Shown here: positions 9,515-28,790 of the stretch, in pieces | Numbering within the stretch: position 1 is the stretch's first letter | How the letters are laid out: each line of letters opens with the position of its first letter | From: a virus | IMG/VR virus record: IMGVR_UViG_3300009184_005291 | Span: 1-64,000 of that record | Direction: 5' to 3' (one strand) | DNA length: 64,000 bases | Notes under the pieces: model-generated | What the model saw: the letters and a program-made list of their open reading frames with translations, nothing else | What the model was told of the DNA's origin: nothing | The model's database searches: none | Translations under genes and position numbers: made by a program

Positions 9515-10195
9515 TTATTTACCCTTCTTTTTTGATTTTACGACCTCGTCAATGATACCGTATTCGAGAGCTTGGTTACTATCCAACCACAAATCTCTAC
9601 TAGCATCAATTTTAACTTGTTCAGGGTCTTTCCCACAGAACTCACCAAGTAAACCAAATAGAATATCATTCAATTTAGCCCACTCTCTCATTGTGATTTC
9701 CGCATCTTGGATGTTACCCACAGCACCACCCGAAGATTGGTGTAGCATTGTTCTAGAGTACTTCAAAGAACTTCTTTTTCCTTTGGTACCTGCTCCCAAC
9801 AATACAGACCCCATAGATGCCGCCATTCCTGTGTTCACAGTTCTAATGTCACAAGCAATGTAGTTCATTACATCAACCATAGATAGTCCTGATTTCACAC
9901 TTCCACCTGGACTGTCAATGTGCATCGTGATATCGGTTTTATCAACATTGTCCATGAACATCAATTGTGCCTGTACAATAGTTGACATTCTATCATCGAC
10001 AGGGCCAGCAACCCAAATGATTCTGTCTCTCATCAATCTTGAGAAGATGTCAATCTGAGTAGCTCTCATCTCTCTTTCTTCAAGAATGTAAGGAGTCATA
10101 GACGACTGAATTTGATTTGAGAAGTTGTGAAGATCCAATGATCCTTTACCCAAATGGTTTACGTAATAATTTTGAAATTCTTGTCCGATGTTCAT
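9515..10195 (-). CDS. clpP: ATP-dependent Clp protease proteolytic subunit
   Basis: DIFSRLMRDRII, IDSPGGSV, AASMGS (Ser), MLHQ (His), RD motifs. Confidence 0.95.
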   Translation of the reverse strand: MNIGQEFQNYYVNHLGKGSLDLHNFSNQIQSSMTPYILEEREMRATQIDIFSRLMRDRIIWVAGPVDDRMSTIVQAQLMFMDNVDKTDITMHIDSPGGSVKSGLSMVDVMNYIACDIRTVNTGMAASMGSVLLGAGTKGKRSSLKYSRTMLHQSSGGAVGNIQDAEITMREWAKLNDILFGLLGEFCGKDPEQVKIDASRDLWLDSNQALEYGIIDEVVKSKKKGK

Positions 10196-10234
10196 ATCTG
10201 TTTTATTTTTTACAAAGTTAATACATTTTTTAGT

Positions 10235-10720
10235 TTATCCAAAAGATTTTTGAAATTCTGTCCAAACGTTTAATAAGACCACGTCATCGTACATTATAGG
10301 TGGTTCATATGCTGACCTACTCATTGACATTTTAGCCTCCTCAGGGGTCTTATTATCCTTCTGTCGATTACATTTGGAACAACAAGTTACCAAGTTTGTC
10401 CATTCGTTTGTTCCTCCTCTAGATTTTGGTAATACGTGGTCTAAGGTTAAATGTTTTTTTGACCCACAATAAACACATTCATATCCATCTCTTTTGTAGA
10501 TTCTGCTACGGTTTGGTTTATTCAATCTTGTCCTATGTTTGATATATTTCAAAAGACGTATGATAACTGGTCGTACGTATTTGTTATACCCAGTAATGAT
10601 TGGATTTTCCCCAGATCTTACAATTTCTGCCTTACCTTTGGTGACCAACACAAATCCTCTATGAACACTTGTCACGTTCAAGGGTGTGTAGTCAGAATTC
10701 AAAACTAATACTCTACTCAT
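10235..10720 (-). CDS. HNH endonuclease
   Basis: RDGYECVYCG...LTLDHVLPKSRGG...NLVTCCSKCNRQK. Confidence 0.9.
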   Translation of the reverse strand: MSRVLVLNSDYTPLNVTSVHRGFVLVTKGKAEIVRSGENPIITGYNKYVRPVIIRLLKYIKHRTRLNKPNRSRIYKRDGYECVYCGSKKHLTLDHVLPKSRGGTNEWTNLVTCCSKCNRQKDNKTPEEAKMSMSRSAYEPPIMYDDVVLLNVWTEFQKSFG

Positions 10721-10791
10721 TTATCAAATGTTTCAACAAAAGTAATTTATTTTTTTTAGAAACGAAAGTTGTTGTGAATGAAAAATTTTAT

Positions 10792-10799
10792 TACCTTTG
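10792..10799 (+). promoter_or_regulatory. Bacteroidota-type -7 promoter element (TAnnTTTG)
   Basis: TACCTTTG upstream of first tRNA; same motif at 13919, 14838, 15203, 17078, 18338 (+) and 23620-23627 (-). Confidence 0.6.
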
Positions 10800-10873: not shown

Positions 10874-10945
10874 GGACCCGTAGCTCAGAGGAAGAGCAGC
10901 GCTCTCATAAAGCGAAGGTCGGGATATCATGATTCCCCGGGTCCA
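10874..10945 (+). tRNA. tRNA with CAU anticodon (Ile2 or elongator Met), atypical T-loop
   Basis: GGACCCG/CGGGTCC acceptor, loop CTCATAA, T-arm GGGAT-ATCATGA-TTCCC. Confidence 0.8.
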
Positions 10946-10972
10946 CAAACAATTAAACTAAAACAAACTACA

Positions 10973-11704
10973 ATGAAAATCAAAAAATTAATCCTATCAG
11001 TTGTAACCCTATCCGTATTTTTAATTTCTTGTTCTAAAGAAGAAATTAATGGTAGTGAAATCACTCCTATCAATAATATGGAACATGCGACCATGTCAAC
11101 ATCAAGTATTGGTGGAGAACAAACACCTTTGAGAGCATATATTTTTGTGGAACCAATGTCGAAACATGTGATGATTAAAAACCATTTGAATAAGTTACCA
11201 TTTATTGGAAGACTCCCATTTGTTGGATTTCATGGTGTTAATGCAGGTGCATGGAAAGATAACTTACCAAATTATATTAATATGACTCATTGGATTGATG
11301 GTAGATTACCACAAATTATGCAAGTTGACATTCCCCAAACAAGTGGAGGAATCGATACATTTGGTAATCCTGTTCAAGCTTTCAATTTCAAAACTGTTAA
11401 AATAACAAAAAATACAGTAAATGATAAATTTTCTTGGATTATAGTTCTTATACCAATTAATGCGATGAGTAACGATACAAAAAGACAAAGAAGGATACGT
11501 ATTGATGAAAAGGCGGGTAATATAACAAAATCTTCAACAATTTTTACAACTGATAATGTTATGTCAGAAACTGTGATTAACTATAATGGTAATCGTATTC
11601 CGGCAGGTCAATATAGGGTTTATTCAACTTATCCATCAAGTGGTATGAGACTGAATTTGAACTCAACAAATGATGTTTATATTAGAGGTTTTAGTAACCA
11701 ATAA
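10973..11704 (+). CDS. putative lipoprotein
   Basis: Signal peptide ending LISC-SKEE, Bacteroidota style. Confidence 0.7.
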   Translation: MKIKKLILSVVTLSVFLISCSKEEINGSEITPINNMEHATMSTSSIGGEQTPLRAYIFVEPMSKHVMIKNHLNKLPFIGRLPFVGFHGVNAGAWKDNLPNYINMTHWIDGRLPQIMQVDIPQTSGGIDTFGNPVQAFNFKTVKITKNTVNDKFSWIIVLIPINAMSNDTKRQRRIRIDEKAGNITKSSTIFTTDNVMSETVINYNGNRIPAGQYRVYSTYPSSGMRLNLNSTNDVYIRGFSNQ

Positions 11705-11711
11705 TTAATAC

Positions 11712-11786
11712 GCTCCTAAAGCATTGCTGGCGATGCACATGACTTGTAATCATGATAACTTGGTTCGATTCCGAGTGGGAGCTCCA
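11712..11786 (+). tRNA. tRNA-Thr(UGU)
   Basis: Cloverleaf; CATGA-CTTGTAA-TCATG; encoded CCA. Confidence 0.9.
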
Positions 11787-11791
11787 ACAGT

Positions 11792-11965
11792 ACTTACTAC
11801 GCTACCCATAAGAACAGCGTCCCAGGGTAAGTCGTGTACCTCGATGTTAACCGTAAGAACAACACAGAGGTTGTATCGTGATATAAGTGAATAGCCCAAG
11901 GTATAAGCTAAAATCACACCCCTAACCTCTATTCAAATGACGATTTGATTATGTTAGGTTTTTTT
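11792..11965 (+). ncRNA. putative structured RNA, four hairpins, two with near-identical loops
   Basis: Manual fold; loops ACCCATAAGAAC and AACCGTAAGAAC. Confidence 0.5.
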
Positions 11966-12053
11966 GGAGAGATGGCAGAGTTGGCCGATTGCACCTGACT
12001 TGAAATCAGGAGTACCTGTGAGGGTACCGTGGGTTCGAATCCTACTCTCTCCT
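11966..12053 (+). tRNA. tRNA-Ser(UGA)
   Basis: CCTGA-CTTGAAA-TCAGG, long variable arm, GTTCGAATC. Confidence 0.92.
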
Positions 12054-12060
12054 CATCATA

Positions 12061-12155
12061 ATTGTGACGATTCGAAAGAATGACGGAACGGACGCTAAGA
12101 ATGAAATGGAAACTGAAGGATTATCCTTGGAAACAAACCGTACAGACGTTACAAT
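12061..12155 (+). ncRNA. putative structured RNA with ANGGA repeats
   Basis: Closing stem ATTGTGACG/CGTTACAAT, GAAA-capped hairpin, ACGG/CCGT inner stem. Confidence 0.45.
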
Positions 12156-12177
12156 CTTTTTCACAAATTAAATCATA

Positions 12178-12531
12178 ATGGCACATCCAAACTTACATGC
12201 AAAATCATCCGCCAAAAAGTTTGGTGGAAAACCTGAGGACTACATTCATTTACATGAATGGTTAGACGAAACCAAGTCATGGTTTGGTGATTCCTTACAT
12301 AGAATGTTTCGGCACCATAGTGAGGGGATATTCGAAATGGAAAAAAGGTTTGGTACCGAATTCAAAAACTCAGATGGAAAAACGGTTTATACTCGTTATG
12401 TTGGAGAACAACATATCAAGGAAGATTGTAATAACTACATTCCATCAGCCAAAGAATGGGTTAACAACATGATGTCCAATCAAAGACCACAGTGGATGTT
12501 GAAGACCATTAAATTAGAATTCGAAGACTGA
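12178..12531 (+). CDS. DUF6915-like protein
   Basis: MAHPxxHAKSSAKKFGGKPEDY...HRxxRHHSEGI...GEQHxxED signature (recalled). Confidence 0.75.
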   Translation: MAHPNLHAKSSAKKFGGKPEDYIHLHEWLDETKSWFGDSLHRMFRHHSEGIFEMEKRFGTEFKNSDGKTVYTRYVGEQHIKEDCNNYIPSAKEWVNNMMSNQRPQWMLKTIKLEFED

Positions 12532-12542
12532 TATTTATTTGT

Positions 12543-13241
12543 ATGTCACAAAATATATTAACACCAGAAGAAAAAAAATATTTAGGAAAAATATCAAGGT
12601 TTCTTAGATCGATGGGAATGAGATATGGAGAAATTCAATTTGAAATGGAACCGGACCAAGAGGGAATTGCGTACAGTCCAAACGATTTTCCAACTCATTT
12701 TGAAAATAATTATACCGCAGAAATACCGGACGGCCTTGTACCAATATTGAAAAAAATTATTGACTATGTTGATGATGATGGGTTATATAGCGAGGTACCT
12801 TATGATGGTTACCTCATTTATCAAAGATTTGACATTACAATTAATGCTATGTCAGGAGAAATATCTTTAACACACTCCTATAGTTATCAAATTGAGGGAG
12901 GTTCACAAGGTATCGAATACGATGATATGATTGAAGAGTGGGAAGAAAAAGGAGTTTTCAATGATACCGAAATTCCTGAAGACAATTATTTGGTCTTGAA
13001 GTATAATGGAGGTGGAGATAGTGGATACATCGAATCGAATTTTGAGAATGGAGAACCTGTACCAACCGAAGTAGAAGAATGGTGTTATCAACAATTGGAA
13101 GATAACTTCGCAGGCTGGGAGATAAATGAAGGATCTCAAGGTGAATTCCAATTTGATTTTAATGAAAAAACAGTTATATTATCACACGCATACAACATTG
13201 AAGAATCTAGATCCAACACACTGTGGGAAGAAGAATTTTAG
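12543..13241 (+). CDS. acidic protein with DUF6878-like C-terminal domain
   Basis: YNGGGDSG...GWEINEGSQGEF signature (recalled). Confidence 0.65.
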   Translation: MSQNILTPEEKKYLGKISRFLRSMGMRYGEIQFEMEPDQEGIAYSPNDFPTHFENNYTAEIPDGLVPILKKIIDYVDDDGLYSEVPYDGYLIYQRFDITINAMSGEISLTHSYSYQIEGGSQGIEYDDMIEEWEEKGVFNDTEIPEDNYLVLKYNGGGDSGYIESNFENGEPVPTEVEEWCYQQLEDNFAGWEINEGSQGEFQFDFNEKTVILSHAYNIEESRSNTLWEEEF

Positions 13242-13258
13242 AATGATTTATTAAATTT

Positions 13259-13909
13259 ATGGTGGAAACAACAATTATCAACGAAGATTTTAGAAACTGC
13301 GACATACCAACAGGATTAACAATAACCGACCCACCTTATAATCAAGAATATTCATACAACGAATACAAAGACAAGTTAACTGAACAGGATTATATTGAGT
13401 TATTATCCAAAATCCCAACTCCTTGTGTCATTATTCATTACCCAGAAGAAACAATCAACTTGTTACCAAAGGCAATAAATGATAAATGTGAACAGGTTGT
13501 TTGTTGGGTGTATAACTCCAACACAGGGAAACAAAGTCGATTGATATCATGGTGGGGTTGTAAGCCGGACTTCAGGAAAGTCAGACAGGAATATAAAAAT
13601 CTCAAAGACAAACGTATTCAAAAAAGAATTGCTGAAGGAAAGACTGGTGCCAAACTTTATGATTGGTGGGAAATTAATCAGGTAAAGAATGTCAGCAAAG
13701 AAAAAACCGAACACCCTTGTCAAATTCCTGAGGAAGTAATCCGAAGAATTATTTTGACAACCGCACAACCAAATCAAACAATTATTGATGTGTTCGGTGG
13801 AAGTGGGACGACAAGTAAGGTAGCTCAAGAGTTGGGATTCAACTCAATTAGTTATGAAATCGATGAGAAGTATTGTGAAATTATGAAACATCGGGTTGAA
13901 AGTATCTGA
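13259..13909 (+). CDS. DNA amino-methyltransferase (N6A/N4C, beta class)
   Basis: DPPY precedes HPCQ and DVFGGSGTT motif I. Confidence 0.88.
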   Translation: MVETTIINEDFRNCDIPTGLTITDPPYNQEYSYNEYKDKLTEQDYIELLSKIPTPCVIIHYPEETINLLPKAINDKCEQVVCWVYNSNTGKQSRLISWWGCKPDFRKVRQEYKNLKDKRIQKRIAEGKTGAKLYDWWEINQVKNVSKEKTEHPCQIPEEVIRRIILTTAQPNQTIIDVFGGSGTTSKVAQELGFNSISYEIDEKYCEIMKHRVESI

Positions 13910-13935
13910 AACTTTCATTATATTTGTAGAATAAT

Positions 13936-14256
13936 GTCCGGGTGATGAAATCGGTAGACATGCAAGACTTTAGAGGTAGACATGAATACTTTTATTAAAG
14001 TATTAAAGTTTACAAAATTGAGTGCCTGAGGGGAAACCTTCAGAGTAGAATTCCTCAAATTCGGTGAACCTTTTGAAATGGGAATACCGAGCGAAGCCCG
14101 AGAGGGAACGTGTAGAGACTAGACGGGGAACACCTAAATCGAGAGATATGGTGAAGGTATAGTCCAGACCACAAACCGTGAGGGTAGTGAAAACTATAGT
14201 GGTAAGAAAATCTTGTGGCTTAGGCCGTGCGGGTTCAAGTCCCGCCCCGGATACCA
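13936..14256 (+). tRNA. tRNA-Leu(UAA), exons 13936-13970 and 14207-14256, split by intron
   Basis: Joined exons give CAAGA-CTTAAAA-TCTTG, class II variable arm, encoded CCA. Confidence 0.9.
13971..14206 (+). ncRNA. group I intron (IC3-like) in anticodon of tRNA-Leu(UAA)
   Basis: Follows exon U34 and ends in G; P AATTCGGTGAA, Q AATACCGAGC, R GTGTAGAGACTAGACG, S AAGGTATAGTCC; no ORF. Confidence 0.88.
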
Positions 14257-14292
14257 AACACTATCGTTCTTTGGAATAAAGGAGAAAATTAT

Positions 14293-14544
14293 ATGGATTT
14301 AGTATCATTTATTTTAGGAATGTCTATAGTTGTGGTCATTGCTGTGGCAGTGGTTGCGGTTATTGCTTTTGTTAGAGTGAATAAACAGAAGGAAGAAATT
14401 AAACAAATAAATCAGTTTCTCGCAAGAGAAATTGAAAATCAAATGAGAGATCGTGATAGAATTATTGACGATATTTATCGAACAATCGATTCACGACTTG
14501 ATAAACTTGAAAGTAGATTGAACGCCGCAAGGCATAAAGATTAA
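14293..14544 (+). CDS. single-TM coiled-coil protein
   Basis: GGAG upstream of ATG 14293; hydrophobic N-terminus, coiled-coil tail. Confidence 0.65.
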   Translation: MDLVSFILGMSIVVVIAVAVVAVIAFVRVNKQKEEIKQINQFLAREIENQMRDRDRIIDDIYRTIDSRLDKLESRLNAARHKD

Positions 14545-14582
14545 ATAAAAACTTTCAAAGACGATAGTGTTATTCACATATT

Positions 14583-14744
14583 ATGTTCGGATTATTCAAG
14601 AAAAAAACAGAAAAAGAAAAATTACAGGAAACTTATGAGAAAATGATGGCAGATGCTTATAAATTATCTCATACAAACAGAACCGCATCTGACAAACTTC
14701 TGGCTGAAGCCGAAGAACTTGCGAAAAAAATATACGGTCAGTAA
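14583..14744 (+). CDS. Lacal_2735-family-like small protein (53 aa, not in ORF track)
   Basis: MFGLFKKKTEKEKLQETYEKMMADAYKLSHTNRTASDKLLAEAEELAKKIYGQ resembles this Bacteroidota family (recalled). Confidence 0.7.
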   Translation: MFGLFKKKTEKEKLQETYEKMMADAYKLSHTNRTASDKLLAEAEELAKKIYGQ

Positions 14745-14749
14745 TATTT

Positions 14750-14824
14750 GTCCCCGTAGCTCAGCTGGATAGTAGCGATTGCCTTCTAAGCAATAGGTCA
14801 CACGTTCGAATCGTGTCGGGGATA
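14750..14824 (+). tRNA. tRNA-Arg(UCU)
   Basis: ATTGC-CTTCTAA-GCAAT; canonical D and T arms. Confidence 0.92.
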
Positions 14825-14847
14825 CAAAATATTTCAGTATATTTGTA

Positions 14848-14938
14848 TTGTGATTGAGGAGCACGATTTAGATACACAAGCTCAATTACAAACTGGGTGA
14901 CACGGGAACGATTCAGATACTAGTGTTACCCTTTTTTT
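14848..14938 (+). ncRNA. putative twin-hairpin sRNA
   Basis: Own TATATTTG promoter, two hairpins sharing loop ACGATTYAGATAC, poly-T end. Confidence 0.6.
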
Positions 14939-15007
14939 ATTAGATATCAGAATAAATAATTTTACAAAATAAAAATATTTCATACATTAGAAGTACTTAT
15001 CAATACA

Positions 15008-15097
15008 ATGAGAACTACAAGTCAACATATTAACAGTAATAGTCAACAAGAGAATTGTTGTTATGAAAGTATTTGCCCTGTAGTTCGGATGTCATAG
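15008..15097 (+). CDS. putative leader peptide (29 aa)
   Basis: MRTTSQHINSNSQQENCCYESICPVVRMS followed by terminator hairpin. Confidence 0.4.
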   Translation: MRTTSQHINSNSQQENCCYESICPVVRMS

Positions 15098-15133
15098 AAA
15101 GTAATTTTTTAATTTAAGTTAAATTAAATTTTT

Positions 15134-15170
15134 AGACCCCGAACTCTTAAAAAAAGTTTGGGGTTTTTTT
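15134..15170 (+). terminator. intrinsic terminator
   Basis: AGACCCCGAACT...AGTTTGGGGTTTTTTT. Confidence 0.75.
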
Positions 15171-15222
15171 ATGACATGTTTTTGTTCTTTGAAATATTGT
15201 AGTATCTTTGTAAGACAAACAT

Positions 15223-15296
15223 GCTCCGGTCGTCTAATTGGTTAGGACATCCCCCTTTCACGGGGAAGCTTACGGGTTCGAGTCCCGTCCGGAGTA
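15223..15296 (+). tRNA. tRNA-Glu(UUC)
   Basis: TCCCC-CTTTCAC-GGGGA; canonical cloverleaf. Confidence 0.92.
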
Positions 15297-15420
15297 CTGA
15301 CACGAGAGGCAACCGAAGGCATACTAGACACTGTTTAGGCAATGGGAACGATCACACAGAATACCTCTCTCTCGTAGGTAAGTTTCAAGTTCTGTTGACT
15401 GTGGGGAAAGTCCCACTCTA

Positions 15421-15510
15421 TAGTCAGGTGGTGTAATGGTAGCACTCGGTGAAGTAGACGCAGTAATGTAGTCCCAATCCGTAGTACAGGTTCGAATCCT
15501 GTTCTTACTA
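15421..15510 (+). ncRNA. tRNA-like RNA 1 (acceptor, D and T arms; anticodon arm replaced)
   Basis: AGTCAGG-TG-GTGT AATGGTA GCAC ... ACAGG TTCGAAT CCTGT TCTTACT A. Confidence 0.7.
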
Positions 15511-15524
15511 CAAATAAAAAATAT

Positions 15525-15659
15525 ATGAAATGGATTATTAGACAATTTGGAAACGTATGGTGTTTATTTGTACATGGCTTTGTTTTAGATAAACACAAAA
15601 TGCATAAAGCATATGGACCACAAGAATGTCAAAAATGTGGTAGGTGGTGGGATTTATAA
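15525..15659 (+). CDS. small Cys/His (zinc-finger-like) protein, 44 aa, not in ORF track
   Basis: MKWIIRQFGNVWCLFVHGFVLDKHKMHKAYGPQECQKCGRWWDL. Confidence 0.55.
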   Translation: MKWIIRQFGNVWCLFVHGFVLDKHKMHKAYGPQECQKCGRWWDL

Positions 15660-15666
15660 TAGTCAG

Positions 15667-15891
15667 GTGAAAAAATTAAAAGTTGTGGAAAAAGAAATAA
15701 GTAAAGAAACTGATGAGTTTATTGATAAATTAGACCATCTGTGTTGGGAACATGGCTTTGAAATTTGGCCAACTGACACTATTAACAAAAGAAATGAAGA
15801 CGGCTCATATCCCACCTTTACTATTCATAATATAGGTAGTGGTGAAACAGTAAGATTGATATATGTCGATGGTGACGGAAGAGGTAAATAA
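15667..15891 (+). CDS. hypothetical protein
   Basis: 3' part of tracked ORF 15613-15891; GTG start chosen to avoid overlap. Confidence 0.5.
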   Translation: MKKLKVVEKEISKETDEFIDKLDHLCWEHGFEIWPTDTINKRNEDGSYPTFTIHNIGSGETVRLIYVDGDGRGK

Positions 15892-15897
15892 TTAGGC

Positions 15898-16006
15898 TAG
15901 TCAGGTGGCGGAATTGGTAGACGCTAGGGAGTTGGTACAAAAACTCTATCAGATGCATTGATAATGTACCTCATACATCATACAGGTTCGAATCCGGTTC
16001 TAACTA
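15898..16006 (+). ncRNA. tRNA-like RNA 2 (Leu-type D arm, multi-hairpin insert, T arm)
   Basis: AGTCAGG-TG-GCG GAATTGGTAGA CGC ... ACAGG TTCGAAT CCGGT TCTAACT A. Confidence 0.7.
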
Positions 16007-16077
16007 CGCAAAAAACAAATAAGATGGAGTTTCTTTACCCTTTCGAGGATGAGTTTTAGAAATCTAAATTATTATAT

Positions 16078-16149
16078 GGTGGCCGTAGCCTAGTGGGAGG
16101 GCGGAAGTTTGTGGCACTTCAGGTAAGAGTTCGATTCTCTTCGGTCACA
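16078..16149 (+). tRNA. tRNA-His(GUG)
   Basis: GAAGT-TTGTGGC-ACTTC; encoded G-1; A rather than C at discriminator. Confidence 0.85.
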
Positions 16150-16153
16150 CAAC

Positions 16154-16221
16154 AGTCAGGTGGTGTAAATGGCAGCACACAGTAGTTAACTGAGGAGCGG
16201 GTTAGAAACCCGTCCTGACAC
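16154..16221 (+). ncRNA. tRNA-like RNA 3 (shortened anticodon arm; degenerate Asn-like)
   Basis: GTCAGG/CCTGAC acceptor, D arm, CAGT-AGTTA-ACTG, T-loop TTAGAAA. Confidence 0.6.
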
Positions 16222-16230
16222 CTTATCAAT

Positions 16231-16304
16231 GGTCAGATACCCAAGTGGCTTAAGGGGCTTGTCTGCAAAACAAGTATCCATCGGTTCGAATCCGATTCTG
16301 ACCT
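16231..16304 (+). tRNA. tRNA-Cys(GCA)
   Basis: CTTGT-CTGCAAA-ACAAG; U73. Confidence 0.92.
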
Positions 16305-16322
16305 CATTTAATTAATTAAAAT

Positions 16323-16739
16323 ATGAAAATTGTAATTGTAAGCGGTTATTTTAATCCTGTTCATAAGGGACATATTGAATATTTCAATAAGTCCAAAGAA
16401 CATGGTGATAAACTCTATGTTATCGTCAATAACGACAAACAGAGAGAGTTGAAAGGTAGTAAAGAATTCCAAGATGAAGATGAAAGAATGTTCATCATCC
16501 AAAACCTTAAAATGGTTGATAGAGTATTTCTTTCAGTTGACACAGATCGAACTGTGTGTAAGACAATCGAATTGATCCATTCTTTTGGGGATAGGGACGA
16601 CGAATTCTTATTTGCCAATGGTGGGGACCAAAACAATAATAGCATCCCTGAGACACCTATTTGTGATTGGTTGGGGGTTAAATTGATTGATGGACTTGGA
16701 GATAAAATCCAATCTTCATCTTGGTTGTTGAAGAAGTAA
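16323..16739 (+). CDS. cytidylyltransferase-family (HIGH) protein
   Basis: SGYFNPVHKGH, FANGGD, KIQSSS motifs. Confidence 0.88.
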   Translation: MKIVIVSGYFNPVHKGHIEYFNKSKEHGDKLYVIVNNDKQRELKGSKEFQDEDERMFIIQNLKMVDRVFLSVDTDRTVCKTIELIHSFGDRDDEFLFANGGDQNNNSIPETPICDWLGVKLIDGLGDKIQSSSWLLKK

Positions 16740-16810
16740 ACATCTATGGTGAAATGGCATCATACCGGATTCCAAACCCGTTGTTCCAAGTTCGAGTCTT
16801 GGTGGGTGTG
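16740..16810 (+). tRNA. tRNA-Trp(CCA), weak anticodon stem
   Basis: Loop TTCCAAA, T arm CCAAG-TTCGAGT-CTTGG; two mismatches in anticodon stem. Confidence 0.7.
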
Positions 16811-16812
16811 CA

Positions 16813-16903
16813 AAATGTAAACTTCAGTACCCACACAGCAGTGGAGATGGGCTAAGTTAGATACGATTCCTCGTAGCTGGGAGTAGAATGCTGAAGAACA
16901 TTT
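16813..16903 (+). ncRNA. putative multibranch structured RNA
   Basis: AAATGT/ACATTT and CTTCAGTA/TGCTGAAG closing stems; CCCA/TGGG and TACGA/TCGTA arms. Confidence 0.45.
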
Positions 16904-16910
16904 ATAGGTT

Positions 16911-17033
16911 GATTGGGGAAGGAATGTATGTTAACCTGATGATGGAGGTGGTACATTTGGAGTTTGGAATCATCGTAGTAATGCCAATCGTAAAAGGAGA
17001 TGTCCACTGAACCATCTTCTCCTTTTCCTAATC
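16911..17033 (+). ncRNA. putative four-way-junction RNA
   Basis: GATTGGGGAAGG/CCTTTTCCTAATC closing stem with three internal hairpins. Confidence 0.5.
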
Positions 17034-17101
17034 TTTCAAAAAAAAATAAATAATTTTTTATTTTGATAGAAAAGTTTTATCTTTGTCTAAAATAATAAAT
17101 T

Positions 17102-17530
17102 ATGACCATTTCTGAGACACAAAAAAATAAATTTTATGAGTTAGGGAATACATTACCAAAATGTGTAAATCCTGGATGTGAAAATGATGTTGCAGTCAGA
17201 AACTGGGGAAATTGGTCATTCAAATCAGAATGTTCTCGGTGTCAATCAGACAGAAAAAAGGGATTAATAAGGGAGGGTATCACAATTCATAAAAAAGAAT
17301 ATTGTGAAAATATTGACGGTCATTTAGGATTCAAATGCCCTGTTCCCACAAAAGAAAGTTGGAAAGGGTTTGAAATAGGATGTTTAGATTTGGACCACAT
17401 AAATGGAGACCATAATAATAATTCAATTGAAAATGTTAAAACATATTGTAAATTGTGCCATAATAAAAAGAGCGTCGAAAGCGGCGATTGTTCTAATAAA
17501 AAAAAATCCGCAAGAATTTTTAATCACTAA
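17102..17530 (+). CDS. Cys-rich HNH-type endonuclease
   Basis: CVNPGC, CSRC, LDLDHINGDHNNNSIENVKTYCKLCH. Confidence 0.75.
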   Translation: MTISETQKNKFYELGNTLPKCVNPGCENDVAVRNWGNWSFKSECSRCQSDRKKGLIREGITIHKKEYCENIDGHLGFKCPVPTKESWKGFEIGCLDLDHINGDHNNNSIENVKTYCKLCHNKKSVESGDCSNKKKSARIFNH

Positions 17531-18327
17531 TGGAACAAAAAATTATTCATGAAGATTGTATTCAGGGGCTTAAAAAAATAAAAAATGAGATTATAAATCT
17601 AACATGGACATCACCACCATATTATAACGCTAAATCATATAGTGAATGGCCAACATATCAAGACTATCTTGATTTCTTAAAAGATGTTTTCTCTGAAGTT
17701 TTTAGAGTTACTTTGCCAGGTAGAATGTGTATTGTGAATCTTTCACCTGTAATTGTTCAAAGAGAATCTAGATCACATGAAAGTAAAAGATTGGCAATCC
17801 CTTTTCATTTTTTCACAATTATGGAATCTTTGGGTTGGAAATATATTGATGATATTGTTTGGGTTAAACCCGAAGGTTCTGCCATAAATAGAAACGGGGG
17901 GTTTTATCAACATCGTAAACCTGTTGCGTATAAACCTAATTTAGTATCTGAAACTATTTTTGTATTTCAAAAACCAGCGAATTTTTTGATAGACAAAATT
18001 GTTAGGTCATATAATGGTGAAGATTTGGAAAAATCATTAGTTAAAGGTCACTATGAAAGGAGTAATGTTTGGTTAATCAACCCTGAAACAAAATCAAAAC
18101 ATTTAGCTCCATACCCTGAAAAACTATCGGATAATATAATCCAATATTATTCTTTCTACGGAGATATTGTTTTAGACCCTTTTTTGGGATCAGGAACAAC
18201 TTTACTTTCCTGTGAAAAATATGGTAGGAATGGTATTGGTTATGAAATTCATAAGGAATATGTGGAAATGTCTGAAAAAAGAATAGAAGAATATAGAAAG
18301 AACAATAATCAACAAGAATTATTTTAA
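17530..18327 (+). CDS. DNA methyltransferase (SPPY, likely N4-cytosine, beta class)
   Basis: TSPPY, HLAPYP, DPFLGSGTT. Confidence 0.9.
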   Translation: MEQKIIHEDCIQGLKKIKNEIINLTWTSPPYYNAKSYSEWPTYQDYLDFLKDVFSEVFRVTLPGRMCIVNLSPVIVQRESRSHESKRLAIPFHFFTIMESLGWKYIDDIVWVKPEGSAINRNGGFYQHRKPVAYKPNLVSETIFVFQKPANFLIDKIVRSYNGEDLEKSLVKGHYERSNVWLINPETKSKHLAPYPEKLSDNIIQYYSFYGDIVLDPFLGSGTTLLSCEKYGRNGIGYEIHKEYVEMSEKRIEEYRKNNNQQELF

Positions 18328-18364
18328 GAAAACTTACTATCTTTGTCGCGATTTGGACTCTACA

Positions 18365-18389
18365 GCAGGTTCGAGTCCTATCGGTCCCA
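18365..18389 (+). pseudogene. orphan tRNA 3' fragment (T arm plus acceptor 3' strand)
   Basis: GCAGGTTCGAGTCCTATCGGTCCCA with no matching 5' half upstream. Confidence 0.6.
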
Positions 18390-18390
18390 C

Positions 18391-18471
18391 AAGACAGACA
18401 CACGCTTCCCACGGTGTTAAAGTACAAGGATAATGAAGAGAATAATACGTCTCCTAAGGTCTGTCTAAACT
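18391..18471 (+). repeat. 81-nt structured direct repeat, copy 1
   Basis: Identical to 19644-19724; AGACAGAC/GTCTGTCT terminal stem. Confidence 0.9.
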
Positions 18472-18541
18472 GTCTCATGGTGTAACGGTAGCACAAGTCA
18501 CTTTGGTTGACTTAGTTCAGGTTCGAATCCTGATGAGATAT
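18471..18541 (+). tRNA. tRNA-Gln(UUG)
   Basis: AGTCA-CTTTGGT-TGACT; U1-A72. Confidence 0.9.
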
Positions 18542-18594
18542 CAAGTTATTCATGTTCCAAAACATGAAAAAACAGTAAGTTTTGGAACATGAAT

Positions 18595-18679
18595 AGAGAA
18601 TTGCCTGAGTGGTTAAAGGAGCAGATTGCTAATCTGTCATCTCGAAAGGGATGCATTGGTTCGAATCCAATATTCTCTG
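18595..18679 (+). tRNA. tRNA-Ser(GCU)
   Basis: GCAGA-TTGCTAA-TCTGT; long variable arm; G73. Confidence 0.92.
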
Positions 18680-18684
18680 CATTT

Positions 18685-18827
18685 TGTAAGGTGTTGAAAT
18701 TGGCAGACAATCCCCGCCTGTCTCGTGGGGGAGGATCATCTGATAAACGAAGGATAATGGGTTGACCACAATCATGTAATGTCCTTTGGCTAAAGACCTC
18801 GTGGTGGTTCGAATCCATCTCTTACAG
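18685..18827 (+). tRNA. atypical 143-nt tRNA with GUC anticodon and ~70-nt variable arm
   Basis: TGTAAGG/TCTTACA acceptor, CCCGC-CTGTCTC-GTGGG, GGTGG-TTCGAAT-CCATC. Confidence 0.7.
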
Positions 18828-18836
18828 CATAAAAAA

Positions 18837-18910
18837 GCGGGTATAGCTCAATTGGCTAGAGTGCCGTCCTTCCAAGTCGGAAGTTGTGAGTTCGAATCTC
18901 ACTACCCGCT
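18837..18910 (+). tRNA. tRNA-Gly(UCC)
   Basis: Loop CTTCCAA; GCGGGTA/TACCCGC; U73. Confidence 0.9.
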
Positions 18911-18926
18911 CTTTTACTTACAATAA

Positions 18927-23077: not shown

Positions 23078-23160
23078 ATTGGTTGATGTCTATGTGATAC
23101 AAAAATACTAATATTTTACGTAATTCAAAAATTAAGGTTTCCTTCGAAAGGGAATTAAAA

Positions 23161-23189
23161 AAAAAAGGGAGTCATTGACTCCCTTTTTT
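23161..23189 (-). terminator. terminator downstream of tmRNA
   Basis: AAAAAAGGGAGTCA-T-TGACTCCCTTTTTT. Confidence 0.75.
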
Positions 23190-23197
23190 ATTGATTG

Positions 23198-23610
23198 TGG
23201 AGGTGCAGGTTACCGCCACCTGGTCTTACCCGCCATATCAAAAATGGACTACACGTTTAGGTCAAGGTTTGTGATACCTTCCGAAATAGATGGTTCCTAT
23301 TTTGACATCGTTACCAACAACTGTGTCGAGTTCACTTGTAATAAGGTAGCCCTCTGAACGTGACCTTTGATACGCTTCGGGTGGTATCGCACCTTGGAGG
23401 GCTTCTGTTCCTAGGTTATATGCCCATTCGACCTGACGTTGTATCTACTTATCAAGCAGTTACAACAGATGCTTCTCTAGTTAAACCTAAAGCAGACATC
23501 TTAGCAAGAGTATTGCCGTTTACTTTCTTCACCGTGGATTTAAGTCATAGATGAATTCTGACTACGTGCCCATTGATTATACAAACGTTAATCAATTCTA
23601 TTTCACCCCC
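23198..23610 (-). ncRNA. ssrA: tmRNA
   Basis: 5' GGGGGTGAAATAGAATTGA; 3' GACCAGGT-GGCGGTA-ACCTG-CACCTCC-A; G3:U70 pair; internal tag ORF 23517-23452 with tandem stops. Confidence 0.88.
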
Positions 23611-23671: not shown

Positions 23672-24718
23672 ATGATAAGTTTAGAAACATTTGTTGCTCT
23701 GAGAAATTACGTCAAAGGAAAAATTGACGCTCATCAACTTATGGATGCAGACAAATTGTTTGATTCGATTAAAGAGAATTATAGATATCCTGCTGAAAGT
23801 ATTATTCGTATTGACTTCAGAAACAAAGAAGATCTTCTCAAAACCTTGGGATTAGCGGATGACGATATATATTTTTATTTTGATGTGACAAGTCCTTATA
23901 ATAGTTATGAGTTCATAGATCATTACTCCGCTATAGAAGAGTTCAAAGATGGGTATGGATTTTACAATTATTTAGATGAAGAAAATAAATATACCTTGTC
24001 TCAAATATCTCGTGCGATTTTACCAAAAAAAGTTGACTTTGGAGATGATGAATTTTTACAAGAATTATCCGCAGTTTTATTACAAAACTTCAAACAAGAA
24101 ACTGAAGATATAATTGATGAATACGCGGCCGAGAAAAATTATCAAATGAACCGAGAGGCATATAAAGTTGTAGAAAAGGAATTACAGGATTACACTGATT
24201 CATTAGCATTTGAGGTCACCGATTCGGGATTAAGAATTAGTGTTGGTCAACTAATACAACTTTATTTGATGGAGAATGCAATTCATATACCATTAAAAAA
24301 ATTGCTTGAAAAAGTTTTTGAATCTAACAAACAATATTTTGGATGGTCTGATGATATCTACGAATACGCCAATGATGACGATTTTGATTCGGTAAGTTTT
24401 AATAAATATGCTGGAAGAATATTAGATAATATTTTAGACAGAATCGTAGACGCTGGAGAAGAATTGGGAGTAGACATAAATGACTTTACCTCCATGACGG
24501 CAAGAATCGAAAAAAAGTTCAAAGCTGGAGAATGGTATTTTTTACCAAAAGACAAGACCAAACAGACTAGATTCAAAGTGGAGGGATTTGAATTTCCTAA
24601 TATGAAAATATCGGTATTATTACAAAAAGGATTGAAAGAAAAAAAAGTATCATTATCAGAACAAAATTTTTATAATTTATTATATCAACCATCATTATTC
24701 AGTTTGGATGAAATCTAA
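23672..24718 (+). CDS. acidic hypothetical protein
   Basis: 348 aa ORF with TATTTAT upstream. Confidence 0.7.
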   Translation: MISLETFVALRNYVKGKIDAHQLMDADKLFDSIKENYRYPAESIIRIDFRNKEDLLKTLGLADDDIYFYFDVTSPYNSYEFIDHYSAIEEFKDGYGFYNYLDEENKYTLSQISRAILPKKVDFGDDEFLQELSAVLLQNFKQETEDIIDEYAAEKNYQMNREAYKVVEKELQDYTDSLAFEVTDSGLRISVGQLIQLYLMENAIHIPLKKLLEKVFESNKQYFGWSDDIYEYANDDDFDSVSFNKYAGRILDNILDRIVDAGEELGVDINDFTSMTARIEKKFKAGEWYFLPKDKTKQTRFKVEGFEFPNMKISVLLQKGLKEKKVSLSEQNFYNLLYQPSLFSLDEI

Positions 24719-26181: not shown

Positions 26182-26224
26182 AATTATAAATATAAAAAAA
26201 GGGGGAATTATCCCCCTTTTTAAT

Positions 26225-28240
26225 TTACCGTCCTTTCTTGACTACTTTGACTACTTCATCTTCGACTTTAATCACATAGGTTTTACCTGGTATGATTTTG
26301 TCGGTCAGAACTTCTTCAGATAATAAGTCTTCAACCTTATCTTGAATCGCTCTCTTGAGTGGTCTAGCACCGTATACCTCATCATATCCGATTTTTGATA
26401 GGTAATTCAAAAGTGATTCATCGTAAGTAATCTTATACTTCATTTCTTCAAGACGCTTCATCAACTTTTTAAGTTCGATGTCGGTGATTTTCTTAATGTC
26501 ATCTTGTGATAGAGAATTGAAAACGATAGTATCATCGATACGATTGATGAATTCAGGAGAGAAGAAATTTTTCATTTCTTTCATCAAGATTTCCTTCTTC
26601 GCTTCTTCGTTACTATAGGTATTGTTGGAGAATCCAATACCAGTTCCAAAGTCTTGTAATTTCTTCACACCAAGATTTGAGGTCAAGATGATAAGGGTAT
26701 TCTTGAAGTTAATCTTTCTACCCAAACTATCTGTAACGTGACCATCGTCCAAGATTTGAAGTAATACTGTAAACACATCTTTGTGAGCTTTTTCAACCTC
26801 ATCAAACAAGATGACAGAGTAAGGTTTATTCTTAACCTTTTCGGTCAACAATCCACCTTCTTCGTATCCAACATAGCCTGGAGGTGCCCCAACCAATTTG
26901 GATACGGTGTGTTTTTCTTGATATTCGGACATATCAACACGGATTAACGAATCTTCACTACCGAACATTTCTTTCGCTAGTTGTTTCGCTAAGTGAGTTT
27001 TACCAACACCTGTGGAACCCAAGAATACGAACGAACCAATTGGACGATTTGGATCTTTGATACCAAGTCGATTTCTCTTGATGGATTTTGCGACCTTGAT
27101 TACCGCAGCATCTTGACCAATTACGGTTCCAACAATATGTTTGTCCAAATTGATAAGTGCTTTAGTATCGTCAACCGACATTCTGCTCACAGGGATTTTA
27201 GTCATGTTTGATACCACATCATAAACATCCTCCAAGGTAATCTTTTGTTTGTCTTTGGACATTTGTTCTTCAAACTTTTGTTTTTCTTGTTCCAATTTGT
27301 CCAACAACTTTTTCTCTTTGTCTCTTAGATGTGCCGCTTGTTCGTAATTCTGTTTCTTAACAACATCCATTTTCTGTTGTTTAAGTTCTGCAGCTTTACG
27401 TTTCAAGTCTTCAATCGCTTCAGGAACTTTAAGTTCAGTCTGCATCTTAGCTCCAACTTCATCCAAAATGTCGAATGCTTTGTCAGGAAATTCACGGTCG
27501 GTAATATATCTGTCCGCCAACTTCACACAAGTTTCGATTACTTCATTTGAATAAATTACCTTGTGGTATGTTTCGTATTTATCTCGAACGTTATTCAAAA
27601 TTTGAATTGTTTCTGCTACGGTAGAAGGTTCCACAATCACTTTCTGAAATCTACGCTCCAACGCTCCATCTTTTTCAATGTGTTTTCTGAACTCATCCAA
27701 AGTTGTTGCACCGATTACTTGAATTTCACCACGAGATAATGCCGGTTTGAAGATGTTGGAACCATCCATAGTTCCTGATGAATTACCTGAACCAACTAAA
27801 GTATGAATTTCATCGATGAACACGATAATGTTCGGGTTCGCCTGAAGTTCTTCAATGATTACTTTCATTCTTTCCTCGAATTGACCACGGTATTTTGTAC
27901 CGGCAACAACTGAAGTCAAGTCCAAATTCACAAGTCGTTTATCCAACAAATTACGTGGACATTCACCATTCACAATTTTCATTGCTAAACCTTCAGCAAT
28001 AGCGGTCTTACCACAACCAGGTTCTCCGATAATGATTGGGTTATTCTTTTTTCTTCGTGAAAGAATCTGAGCAATTCTTAGGATTTCTCTATCCCTTCCG
28101 ATTACGGGATCTAGCTTACCTTCTTCGGCAAGTTTATTCAAATCTCTACTGAAATTGTCTAGTACAGGAGTCGAGCTGTCCGCAGCGGACTTCTGTTTTT
28201 TACTCATCATTTTGTCTTCGTCGTCCATTAAGTCGTTCAT
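26225..28240 (-). CDS. clpC: ClpC-like AAA+ ATPase lacking the N-terminal Clp repeat domain
   Basis: Walker A GEPGCGKT and GSTGVGKT, UVR-type middle domain, GIGF ClpP-docking loop, GARPLKR. Confidence 0.88.
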   Translation of the reverse strand: MNDLMDDEDKMMSKKQKSAADSSTPVLDNFSRDLNKLAEEGKLDPVIGRDREILRIAQILSRRKKNNPIIIGEPGCGKTAIAEGLAMKIVNGECPRNLLDKRLVNLDLTSVVAGTKYRGQFEERMKVIIEELQANPNIIVFIDEIHTLVGSGNSSGTMDGSNIFKPALSRGEIQVIGATTLDEFRKHIEKDGALERRFQKVIVEPSTVAETIQILNNVRDKYETYHKVIYSNEVIETCVKLADRYITDREFPDKAFDILDEVGAKMQTELKVPEAIEDLKRKAAELKQQKMDVVKKQNYEQAAHLRDKEKKLLDKLEQEKQKFEEQMSKDKQKITLEDVYDVVSNMTKIPVSRMSVDDTKALINLDKHIVGTVIGQDAAVIKVAKSIKRNRLGIKDPNRPIGSFVFLGSTGVGKTHLAKQLAKEMFGSEDSLIRVDMSEYQEKHTVSKLVGAPPGYVGYEEGGLLTEKVKNKPYSVILFDEVEKAHKDVFTVLLQILDDGHVTDSLGRKINFKNTLIILTSNLGVKKLQDFGTGIGFSNNTYSNEEAKKEILMKEMKNFFSPEFINRIDDTIVFNSLSQDDIKKITDIELKKLMKRLEEMKYKITYDESLLNYLSKIGYDEVYGARPLKRAIQDKVEDLLSEEVLTDKIIPGKTYVIKVEDEVVKVVKKGR

Positions 28241-28418
28241 AATGTTTTTTAGTTTTTACAAAGTAATAACAAATTTAGTTCTTATCCAAATGATTTGACA
28301 AATTGTCAGAAATATTTATTTTTATTAAATCTTTTTCTGACATAATGTCATATAAAAACCATCGGCATAAATCTTGAAACAAAGATAACAAATAAACTTA
28401 AAATAAAAAACTAAAATT

Positions 28419-28790
28419 ATGTTTGGTAACAGAAGATCGTATAACGACATTTTTAGAGCATTCGATGAAATGTTCACACAATTAACCCCAAATAACGGTG
28501 AGTGGAAAACTCAAAGTAAAGTTTCAGAAGATGGAACAATGAAAATAACTACGTATTACTACGACAACGCTAAAACAAACCCAACTTCAAAAAATCTGAA
28601 ACAACAACTTGAAATCGCAATTGAAAATGAAGATTTTGAAAAAGCGGTTGAACTAAGAGACCAAATCAAGAAATTGGATATCAATCAAAAGGAAATCAAC
28701 AAACTTGAAGAGGAACTCAAAAAATCAATCGAACAACAAAACTTTGAAAAATCAATTGAGATTCGAGACCAACTCAAAAAACTAAAGTAA
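28419..28790 (+). CDS. tandem UVR (UvrB/UvrC motif) protein
   Basis: AIENEDFEKAVELRDQIK and SIEQQNFEKSIEIRDQLK. Confidence 0.8.
   Translation: MFGNRRSYNDIFRAFDEMFTQLTPNNGEWKTQSKVSEDGTMKITTYYYDNAKTNPTSKNLKQQLEIAIENEDFEKAVELRDQIKKLDINQKEINKLEEELKKSIEQQNFEKSIEIRDQLKKLK

Follow-up and report, generated by a model that had tools for sequence, protein, structure and literature searches.

Does a virus that carries a transfer-messenger RNA (tmRNA) with an atypical tag, a ClpP peptidase and a ClpC-like ATPase run a tagging-and-degradation circuit of its own? This question is raised by the first 64 kb (positions 1 to 64,000, hereafter the window) of IMG/VR virus record IMGVR_UViG_3300009184_005291, a record of 85,125 bp with an estimated completeness of 28%, in which an earlier note had recognized these three genes and proposed that they might act together. 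To our knowledge, genome papers have long recorded tmRNAs in phages with no demonstrated role for them. The locus was compared with 80 related loci, i.e., the best 80 of at least 599 viral stretches matched in a protein search with the ClpC-like ATPase. Overall, the evidence from these comparisons supports a functional tmRNA whose tag is under selection and which has been inherited together with the phage ClpC and ClpP and with peptidases.

The tmRNA gene and its tag

The earlier note had placed the tmRNA gene at positions 23610-23198. When positions 22900-23900 were searched against Rfam with reporting by E-value, the full tmRNA model (RF00023, model positions 1-374) matched 23195..23610 on the minus strand with 37.6 bits (E = 2.5e-13), as compared to a gathering score of 47 bits for this family. 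At gathering thresholds Rfam reported no tmRNA in the window, and ARAGORN called none either in the whole window or in positions 22900-23900. The acceptor stem is formed by GGGGGTG (23610-23604) and CACCTCC (23205-23199), includes the G3:U70 pair and is followed by the discriminator A at position 23198. The T arm has a 5-bp stem and the loop GGCGGTA as compared to the consensus TTCGAAT or TTCGACT; similar or identical odd loops are found in four related loci (L002, L019, L020 and L041). The gene ends in ACAA rather than ACCA (the latter is encoded in 23 of 51 registered relatives), and CCA would presumably be added post-transcriptionally. The low Rfam score of the window's copy can thus be explained by its non-consensus T-loop together with the ACAA end. 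All seven tmRNAs of relatives that were tested scored above the cut-off (82.5, 130.3, 112.5, 98.6, 97.1, 76.4 and 50.6 bits), and the core of the window's tmRNA is 93-96% identical to the cores of L001-L006 and L035; its membership in the tmRNA family therefore follows from homology to these members and not from its own score.

A profile built from 17 tmRNA copies was run on the 80 related loci, and covariation was tested in an alignment of 50 tmRNA sequences. Compensatory double changes were found in 29 of 36 consensus base pairs. The identity pair was G:U in 49 of the 50 aligned sequences, with neighbouring pairs of the acceptor stem covarying, and the five pairs of the T-stem were unbroken in all 50. 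Covariation extends to the odd T arm itself (CAGGT/ACCTG in the window, TGGGA/TCCCA in L002, TAGGA/TCCTA in L020). Judged from this alignment, the window's tmRNA is genuine and its RNA structure is under selection, and the placement of the gene in the earlier note holds.

Comparison of the closest tmRNAs also revealed that the copies in L001, L003-L006 and L035, with cores (positions 41-362) 93-96% identical to that of the window, nevertheless are wholly unlike the window's copy in the tRNA-like domain at either end, where they have a consensus T-loop and an encoded CCA, while L002 shows the odd form of the window. The tRNA-like domain thus seems to be exchanged as a unit among near-identical tmRNAs. 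In L061, a GOLLD RNA (RF02032, 311.9 bits; positions 14898-15311, minus strand) directly adjoins the tmRNA; no GOLLD RNA was found in the window at Rfam gathering thresholds. The terminator-like hairpin that follows the tmRNA in the window accounts for chance matches to small RNA families in the Rfam scan.

A blastn search with the tmRNA region yielded no match among INPHARED phages. When the tmRNA of a relative was compared by blastn with 401 genomes of the phylum of genome G008, 185 of these genomes matched, all over the 3' 28-32 nt only, and no donor lineage could be named from this comparison. As bacterial tmRNAs match over such a short 3' stretch only, the phage gene does not appear to be a recent capture.

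The register of the Rfam match places the resume codon at the GGC that lies five bases after a UAA, a spacing that matches E. coli tmRNA. From this codon, the window encodes the tag GNTLAKMSALGLTREASVVTA (21 codons), followed by TGA and TAA; the 21-residue tag ending in VTA, and the resume codon which had been deduced from context, thus stand in the same frame as first proposed. The intended check of the tag with ARAGORN failed for the window, where no tmRNA was called, and succeeded in part for the relatives: 11 tmRNAs were called in the 80 related loci, 7 of them with a tag that starts at the same GN codon, 3 with a later start in this frame and 1 (in L040) with a tag placed elsewhere, in disagreement with our manual reading. 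The ARAGORN tags of L169, L307 and L040 have unusual positions, and those of L169 and L040 were disregarded.

The tag frame was assessed in 63 copies, i.e., the window and 62 relatives, which together encode 44 distinct peptides. The open reading frame (ORF) is kept in all 63 copies, with 21 codons in 53 and 22 codons in 10 of them, and starts with the resume codons GGC (58 copies), GGA (3) or GAC (2). The ratio of non-synonymous to synonymous changes (pN/pS) was 0.60 in frame as compared to 0.95 in both shifted frames; stops interrupted the shifted frames in 39 and 38 of 42 distinct sequences, and the third codon positions of the tag were the most variable. These patterns indicate that the tag is under selection at the peptide level, and the conservation of the frame, on which the proposal of the earlier note depended, is thus borne out.

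Among the 38 distinct tags with 21 residues, G11 and L12 are invariant, K6 and G1 are each present in 36, the final Ala in 35, R14 in 31 and M7 in 30 (Leu in all others); position 20 is unconstrained and can be V, A, T, G, E, K or I. Residues 1-14 are better conserved than the C-terminus. The per-position conservation thus identifies the middle of the tag, K-M-x-x-L-G-L, rather than its C-terminus as the most constrained part. All 6 distinct tags with 22 residues end in Ala, and the most common ends among the 63 copies are TVA (18), VTA (9), VAA (6) and VVA (6), with VTI and TVS occurring twice each.

For comparison, tags were collected from genomes of Bacteroidota and allied phyla, which were reached through the cellular homologues of the phage ClpC and through a phylum sample. 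The nearest cellular ClpC homologues are 55-62% identical to the phage protein, and 73 of the best 80 come, by label, from Bacteroidota lineages. The host-type tags found were GENNYALAA, GEGNYALAA, GNTQYAMAA, DNTSYRLAA, ANDYSYAMAA (twice), ADYNYALAA and AEDYSYAMAA, i.e., they have 9-10 residues in all eight genomes as compared to 21-22 residues in the phage tag, and their mean hydropathy ranges from -0.23 to -0.77 as compared to 0.43. The phage tag is thus clearly distinct from the tags of its likely hosts. The tag of Sediminibacterium (GNTQYAMAA) opens with the same codons (GGC AAT AC.) as the phage tag, and the tag of L020 resembles a host 9-mer with a 12-residue extension (GNTFAKMAA, then LGLTREAVVVAA). 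An origin from a host tag plus an extension may apply to one subclass of the phage tags, and we mention it as a lead.

Two motifs that had been noticed upstream of the tmRNA, TACATTTG and TATTTATA, were both found to be real. The -7 promoter box of Bacteroidota has the consensus TAnnTTTG, by which we take TACATTTG to be a box of this type. In the window, TAnnTTTG boxes lie 9 nt before the 5' end of the tmRNA and, for clpP and clpC, 18 and 30 nt before the respective start. Among the related loci, 55 of 62 carry the box within 60 nt upstream of the tmRNA, as compared to 5.2% of random 63-nt windows. The second motif, TATTTATA, lies 4-37 nt upstream of a start on the same strand at 10 of its 19 sites in the window (the portal gene included) and precedes the tmRNA in the window as well as in 29 of 62 related loci; it is probably a late-type promoter element of the phage. 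The 10-mer ATATTTATAC, searched with one mismatch allowed, showed no clear enrichment (19 matches as compared to 11.8 expected; 4 of 100 shuffles reached 19).

At least half of the words sampled from the tmRNA stretch are present in 14 DNA sequencing runs, labelled mostly as freshwater. Contigs from four of four metatranscriptome runs, representing four studies, map to positions 23249-23574; one of these contigs has 405 nt and a word depth of 125, and its loose ends match the consensus-type tRNA-like domain of the relatives. In the 2.2 kb examined, the only contig outside positions 23249-23574 was one of 185 nt, with 17 differences, on the neighbouring gene orf348; the uncovered flanks say nothing on transcription.

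The ClpC-like unfoldase, ClpP and the genes around them

The gene upstream of the tmRNA on the same strand, which had been described as a ClpC-like ATPase with a GIGF loop, encodes a double-ring AAA+ unfoldase of the ClpC type with the expected domains (Table 1); that it has no N-domain had gone unremarked. Walker A motifs are located at residues 72-79 and 408-415, with the Walker B motifs also kept, and pore motifs at residues 116-119 (KYRG) and 455-458 (GYVG). A short coiled coil between D1 and D2 (residues ~270-335) represents the M-domain, in which QNYEQAAHLRDKEKKL at residues 297-312 aligns to the M-domain of ClpC. The ClpP-docking loop GIGF occupies residues 534-537; G534, G536 and F537 are invariant in 38 phage sequences.

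Overall, the protein aligns to residues 147-794 of the 818 residues of S. aureus ClpC (6em8; 728 bits), its alignment to phrog_4871 begins at position 156, and no match to Clp_N was found with Pfam. All 75 complete phage ClpC ORFs are 664-741 aa long, i.e., loss of the N-domain is a trait of the clade. By comparison, 62 of 70 evaluable Bacteroidota homologues are 836-910 aa long, each with at least 152 extra N-terminal residues (the other 8 were mis-registered in this comparison). The Clp_N domain is the site of adaptor and phospho-arginine binding; as it is missing here, we classify the protein as ClpC-like rather than as a canonical ClpC. No ClpX, ClpS or SspB was found in the record of the window or in four relatives, including both complete genomes among them, and ClpC is thus the only phage Clp ATPase found.

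The ClpP reported at 9515-10195 was found to be intact. It scores 188.6 bits against Pfam CLP_protease (cut-off 20.2), and its catalytic motifs, which align with those of solved ClpP structures, are all kept (Ser in GMAASMG, residues 123-129; His in MLHQS, residues 150-154; Asp in SRD, residues 199-201). As the score of 235.7 against the NCBIfam equivalog does not reach the cut-off of 361, it represents a diverged ClpP. The closest named bacterial ClpPs (from Bacteroidota) are only 46-47% identical to it, and it is separate from the T4-type prohead protease of the same window. ClpPs that are 59-71% identical to that of the phage occur on L331-L338, genome contigs of up to 254 kb from metagenome-assembled genomes or single-cell assemblies labelled as Saprospirales, Flavobacteriaceae, Methanobacterium, Prochlorococcus and Gammaproteobacteria; here, phage contigs have probably been binned with cells.

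The tmRNA is located on the ClpC strand, 1.9-5.1 kb downstream of ClpC, in 64 of the 80 related loci (62 full length, 2 cut by the end of the locus). Of the 16 loci without a tmRNA, 15 extend for at most 3.3 kb after ClpC and one for 5.6 kb. As these loci end too early relative to the distance at which the tmRNA starts in the others, no locus is clearly tmRNA-negative. ClpP is present in 8 of 10 ClpC-bearing records larger than 100 kb, including both complete genomes. Within the clade, ssrA, clpP and clpC thus co-occur as anticipated.

For SmpB, relatives were found in 54 viral loci. Of the two complete genomes, one encodes SmpB, about 190 kb from the tmRNA, and in 5 of the 80 loci (L015, L048, L052, L062 and L063) SmpB lies 100-1100 bp from the tmRNA, forming a tmRNA-SmpB-ClpC cluster. 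The window had been described as having no visible SmpB, and the rest of the record adds none. The SmpB-sized orf148, which directly follows the tmRNA, shows no family match, is without relatives in the 80 loci and cannot be recognised as an SmpB.

Two genes for peptidases or possible peptidases separate ClpC from orf348 and the tmRNA. The gene most tightly linked to ClpC is that of the M20/M42-like peptidase (76 of the 80 loci); the protein with an HExxH motif, a possible small metallopeptidase, is present in 25. The gene orf348 evolves fast (46-54% identity in relatives whose ClpC is 93-97% identical). Its AlphaFold2 model is confident, with a predicted local distance difference test (pLDDT) score of 91; a Foldseek search of this model against the PDB found nothing at E <= 0.001, and a wide VIA-align search gave a best Z of 6.0 with helical bundles, which is within the uninformative range and gives no evidence of a new fold.

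On the other side of ClpC, a small protein with two UVR motifs is encoded divergently. It is found on this same side of clpC in 39 of the 80 loci, and its Atlas clusters contain viruses only; its AlphaFold2 model is weak (pLDDT 66). This protein could be a partner or regulator of the ClpC M-domain. An assignment as McsA was rejected, given that the NCBIfam score is 46.7 as compared to a cut-off of 210, that the match covers model positions 126-174 only (the UVR part) and that the protein has no cysteine.

Table 1. Positions of the features discussed in the text (window coordinates)
Feature	Position	Strand	Basis
tmRNA gene, one-piece	23195..23610	-	Rfam RF00023; homology to relatives
Tag reading frame (resume GGC 23517-23515; last codon GCT 23457-23455; stops TGA 23454-23452 and TAA 23451-23449)	23449..23517	-	Rfam register
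TACATTTG, Bacteroidota-type -7 box (presumed), upstream of tmRNA	23627-23620	-	consensus TAnnTTTG
TATTTATA, phage motif also preceding structural genes, upstream of tmRNA	23637-23630	-	
TATTTATA, example sites	37208-37215, 41591-41598, 30189-30196, 54425-54432	that of the downstream start	motif count
Terminator-like hairpin and T-run directly 3' of tmRNA	23157..23190	-	sequence read
ClpC-type double-ring AAA+ unfoldase without N-domain, 671 aa	26225..28240	-	Pfam AAA, AAA_lid_9, AAA_2, ClpB_D2-small
ClpP serine peptidase, 226 aa	9515..10195	-	Pfam CLP_protease (PF00574)
M20/M42-like (peptidase T-like) peptidase, 282 aa	24724..25572	+	Pfam M20 and M42; phrog_4191; PDB 3gb0 (peptidase T), E 1e-6
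Protein with HELRH (HExxH) motif, possible small metallopeptidase, 202 aa	25573..26181	-	weak Pfam matches, E 0.05-0.06
orf348, 348 aa, between peptidase and tmRNA	23672..24718	+	no Pfam, PHROG or NCBIfam match
Small protein with two C-terminal UVR motifs, 123 aa, divergent from clpC	28419..28790	+	Pfam UVR, 56.9 bits, two stretches
KTSC-domain protein, conserved neighbour without an assigned role in the module	29159-29401	+	64 bits; in 74/80 loci
Pol-beta-type nucleotidyltransferase, conserved neighbour without an assigned role in the module	29413-30156	+	in 72/80 loci
Array of 13 tRNA genes, located between ClpP and the ClpC-tmRNA cluster, with HNH endonuclease and methylase genes interspersed	10874..19001	+	ARAGORN, Rfam
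orf148, directly after tmRNA	22631-23077		
RNA ligase	1728-2783	-	
HAD domain of the RNA-repair "Swiss army knife" type	21634-22269	-	
PhoH	57926-58660	-	
T4-type prohead protease	40567-41283		

The record has a G+C content of 33%, and the window contains structural genes for a large terminase, a portal, a T4-type prohead protease and a major capsid protein, the latter with Flavobacterium phage immuto (38%), huge phage LR756508, Microcystis phage Mel-JY01 and Rhodothermus phage RM378 as its closest isolates. As the two complete relatives have genomes of 309 and 321 kb, the window is part of the genome of a T4-like freshwater jumbo phage of roughly 300 kb, probably with a host among the Bacteroidota. 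A tyrosine integrase was found neither in the record nor in the two complete relatives. The window contains 12 tRNA genes according to ARAGORN and 13 according to Rfam; the thirteenth (10874-10945, plus strand; 47.5 bits) is the one without an ARAGORN call and is overlapped by a mechanical ORF on the opposite strand (10733-10948). Together with the tRNA array and the tmRNA, the RNA ligase, the HAD protein and PhoH make up a broad toolkit for RNA maintenance.

Possible roles of the tag

One reading of this locus is a rescue-and-degrade module run by the phage, in which the products tagged by the phage tmRNA would go mainly to the phage ClpC-ClpP. We hold this reading tentatively, with a confidence only a little short of even. 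Under it, a host-type promoter would drive transcription of a working one-piece tmRNA, which would be charged with alanine by the host synthetase and would enter stalled ribosomes with SmpB, either that of the host or, in some relatives, the phage's own. The phage-specific tag of 21 residues (Ala + GNTLAKMSALGLTREASVVTA) would then be appended to the stalled products, and these would be fed mainly to the ClpC ring docked on phage ClpP. Because this ClpC has no N-domain, it is probably adaptor-independent or differently regulated, and the tandem-UVR protein would be a candidate regulator or adaptor acting through the M-domain. The two adjacent peptidases might trim the resulting peptides to amino acids. 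On balance, the pathway would keep ribosomes free and recycle amino acids during a long jumbo-phage infection. We favor this reading because of the tight synteny and because a plain C-terminal degron would not need the conserved motif in the middle of the tag; the failure to find any other phage Clp ATPase, and the precedents of ClpC1 and of Mycoplasma Lon described below, also argue for it.

A more specific version would make the tag a private, orthogonal degron. Here, the K-M-x-x-L-G-L core would dock a phage factor (the UVR protein being the leading candidate), which would hand the products to a ClpC-ClpP independent of host adaptors, bypassing the short ALAA-type tags of the host and its ClpXP, and the two peptidases would finish the conversion to amino acids for phage protein synthesis. 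In this detailed form, we consider the proposal rather unlikely.

Several observations weigh against a dedicated module. ClpP is missing from 2 of the 10 large records, both of them fragments (51% and 38% complete). It is not part of one operon with ClpC, being located 16 kb from it in the window and ~19-27 kb in those relatives that appear on both the ClpC and the ClpP match lists. SmpB (PF01668) was not found in the 85,125-bp record, which is 28% complete, and the complete relative G002 is without SmpB as well. Outside the clade, tmRNA and Clp genes are not obligatorily linked: huge phage LR756502 has ClpC and three ClpP matches with no tmRNA above the cut-off, and LR756508 combines a tmRNA (72 bits) and ClpC with a weak ClpP-like match. 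Within the clade, the linkage counts do not represent independent events, since linked genes of one clade share ancestry. Co-regulation of the tmRNA and clpC is weakly supported, as the TAnnTTTG box precedes clpC in just 18 of 74 loci, and the contigs from RNA libraries show the presence of the tmRNA family only, not its level, ends or strand. The window's own tmRNA deviates from the family (non-consensus T-loop, no encoded CCA, score below the Rfam cut-off), and this copy could work less well than those of the relatives. Moreover, most tags end in a hydrophobic residue, a small residue and Ala (TVA, VTA, VAA, VVA), as conventional tags do, and variants of the E. coli tag suggest that such ends are not obviously invisible to ClpX.

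These last ends, which keep the ordinary ssrA pattern, also fit the main rival of the rescue-and-degrade module, i.e., a generic rescue function in which the phage tmRNA raises the capacity for trans-translation at times when host mRNA is being damaged by the phage or RNA is being cut by the host, and in which ClpXP, Lon or FtsH of the host take the tagged products. The phage ClpC-ClpP and the peptidases would then do a separate job, such as bulk turnover of host proteins for amino acids or removal of specific host factors, and the synteny would reflect a shared proteostasis neighbourhood rather than one pathway. This is a serious possibility, though one that we would stop well short of calling probable. 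It is consistent with the first three tag residues, which match Chitinophagaceae GNTQYAMAA and make the tag look derived from a host tag, with the presence of ClpC and ClpP in LR756502 without a tmRNA and with the 16-27 kb between ClpP and the tmRNA; RNA damage during infection is suggested by the RNA ligase, the RNA-repair-type HAD protein and PhoH, and roles of phage tmRNAs in maintaining hijacked ribosomes or in recycling amino acids have already been put forward (PMC9004378). Generic rescue leaves unexplained, however, why residues 1-14 are conserved above the C-terminus with G11 and L12 invariant, why a length of 21-22 residues is maintained over 44 variants when the hosts manage with 9-10, and why the tmRNA lies beside ClpC in every related locus that is long enough.

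The peak of conservation in the middle of the tag, and not at its end, could alternatively mean that the tag is not primarily a degron. Its core might be an epitope by which rescued polypeptides are sequestered, marked or protected, or a host protease or adaptor might be titrated by it, in which case the phage would gain mainly from ribosome release. The few variants that end in Ile or Ser (VTI and TVS, 2 each of 63) and the higher hydropathy as compared to host tags (0.43 vs. -0.23 to -0.77) would be compatible with such a role. We consider it improbable, given that Ala ends 35 of the 38 distinct 21-mers and all 6 distinct 22-mers, that the gene sits among an unfoldase and peptidases, and that no candidate binding partner has been identified. 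Least credible of all is that the tmRNA is a relic, i.e., a captured host gene or the remnant of an attachment site that is decaying in this phage. Such decay would account for the failure of ARAGORN to call the window's copy, the score below the Rfam cut-off, the odd T-loop and the missing CCA. The gene is full length, however, and not a 3' fragment; its base pairs covary, including the T-stem of the odd variant, its promoter box is conserved, it is present in contigs from RNA libraries, and neither the record nor the two complete relatives yielded a tyrosine integrase, which makes an origin as a relic or attachment site unlikely. The restriction of bacterial tmRNA matches to the 3' 28-32 nt (185 of 401 genomes) also speaks against recent capture.

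The locus is significant in that a long, clade-specific tag under peptide-level selection travels with the sole phage Clp unfoldase found, with ClpP and with peptidases. If only the phage protease reads the tag, this would represent the first complete virus-encoded pathway for tagging and degradation, and a natural source of orthogonal degradation tags comparable to the Mesoplasma Lon system used in synthetic biology. A ClpC that naturally has no N-domain could also reveal how control of the ring works with the M-domain as its only route. Should the tag be read equally well by host proteases, the module would still exemplify how jumbo phages of abundant lake bacteria protect their ribosome supply and recycle amino acids.

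Comparison with known systems

In bacteria, trans-translation is carried out by tmRNA and SmpB, and the ssrA tag is read by ClpXP or ClpAP with the help of SspB. The phage locus shares with this system a one-piece tmRNA with a G3:U70 acceptor stem, a T arm, a long helix 2, a tag ORF and a tandem stop, as well as the presence, in the same genome, of a ClpP-family peptidase and an AAA+ unfoldase that docks on ClpP. It differs in the length of its tag (21-22 residues as compared to 9-10), in the conservation of K-M-x-x-L-G-L rather than of a C-terminal ALAA, in having a ClpC type without N-domain rather than ClpX or ClpA, in the sporadic occurrence of SmpB and in being entirely virus-borne. In a search of the full-text literature, excluding supplementary files, no paper was found to connect a phage-specific tag with a phage ClpC-ClpP.

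The comparisons that follow refer to those parts of the cited publications that were available to us. Huge phages carry tmRNAs and SmpB (PMC7162821), Bacillus megaphage G has a tmRNA with the tag AKLNITNNELQVA in addition to ClpP and ClpX (PMC12484599), and tmRNAs were found in 402 of 18,146 phage genomes, including the two-piece tmRNA of OM43 phage Melnitz, for which amino-acid recycling by tagging was proposed (PMC9004378). As in the phage studied here, these genomes are large and carry tRNA arrays and tmRNAs, sometimes together with SmpB and Clp genes; the available parts of these reports contain no conserved phage-specific tag tied to a phage ClpC-ClpP, no ClpC without N-domain and no clade-wide synteny of tmRNA and ClpC (PMC7162821, PMC12484599, PMC9004378).

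The core genes of the freshwater "moraphages" of Bacteroidota include a ClpA-type ATPase, a putative peptidase, PhoH and a virus orthologous group (VOG) annotated as "lysine-tRNA ligase" (PMC12619734); the latter may be equivalent to the KTSC protein of the window. By description only, the two resemble each other in their freshwater origin, predicted Bacteroidota hosts and T4-like structural genes, and on this likeness the window may belong to the moraphage lineage; the word "tmRNA" does not occur in the text of that paper (PMC12619734).

Use of ClpC and ClpP by a phage has a parallel in SPO1, whose Gp53 is an adaptor-like protein for the host ClpCP (PMC6873191). SPO1 thereby reprogrammes the ClpC of its host with a small protein, whereas the phage studied here encodes both ClpC and ClpP.

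For the reading of a tmRNA tag by a ClpC-type unfoldase, precedent is provided by mycobacterial ClpC1-ClpP1P2, which degrades GFP with an ssrA tag (PMC4416901). There, as in the phage locus, a double-ring unfoldase of the ClpC type is combined with ClpP, and a tmRNA-tagged protein is degraded; unlike the phage protein, ClpC1 has an N-domain, the tag is a conventional one ending in YALAA, and no phage is involved. The length of the phage tag, on the other hand, has its precedent in Mycoplasma, where an ssrA tag of 27 residues has co-evolved with Lon and is read by this protease instead of ClpXP (Gur and Sauer 2008, as cited in PMC8403727), i.e., where the length and sequence of the tag track its reader. 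In Mycoplasma this switch follows the loss of ClpXP from a reduced cellular genome (PMC8403727), whereas in the case described here the host is presumed to retain its own system, with a second tag and a second protease supplied by the phage.

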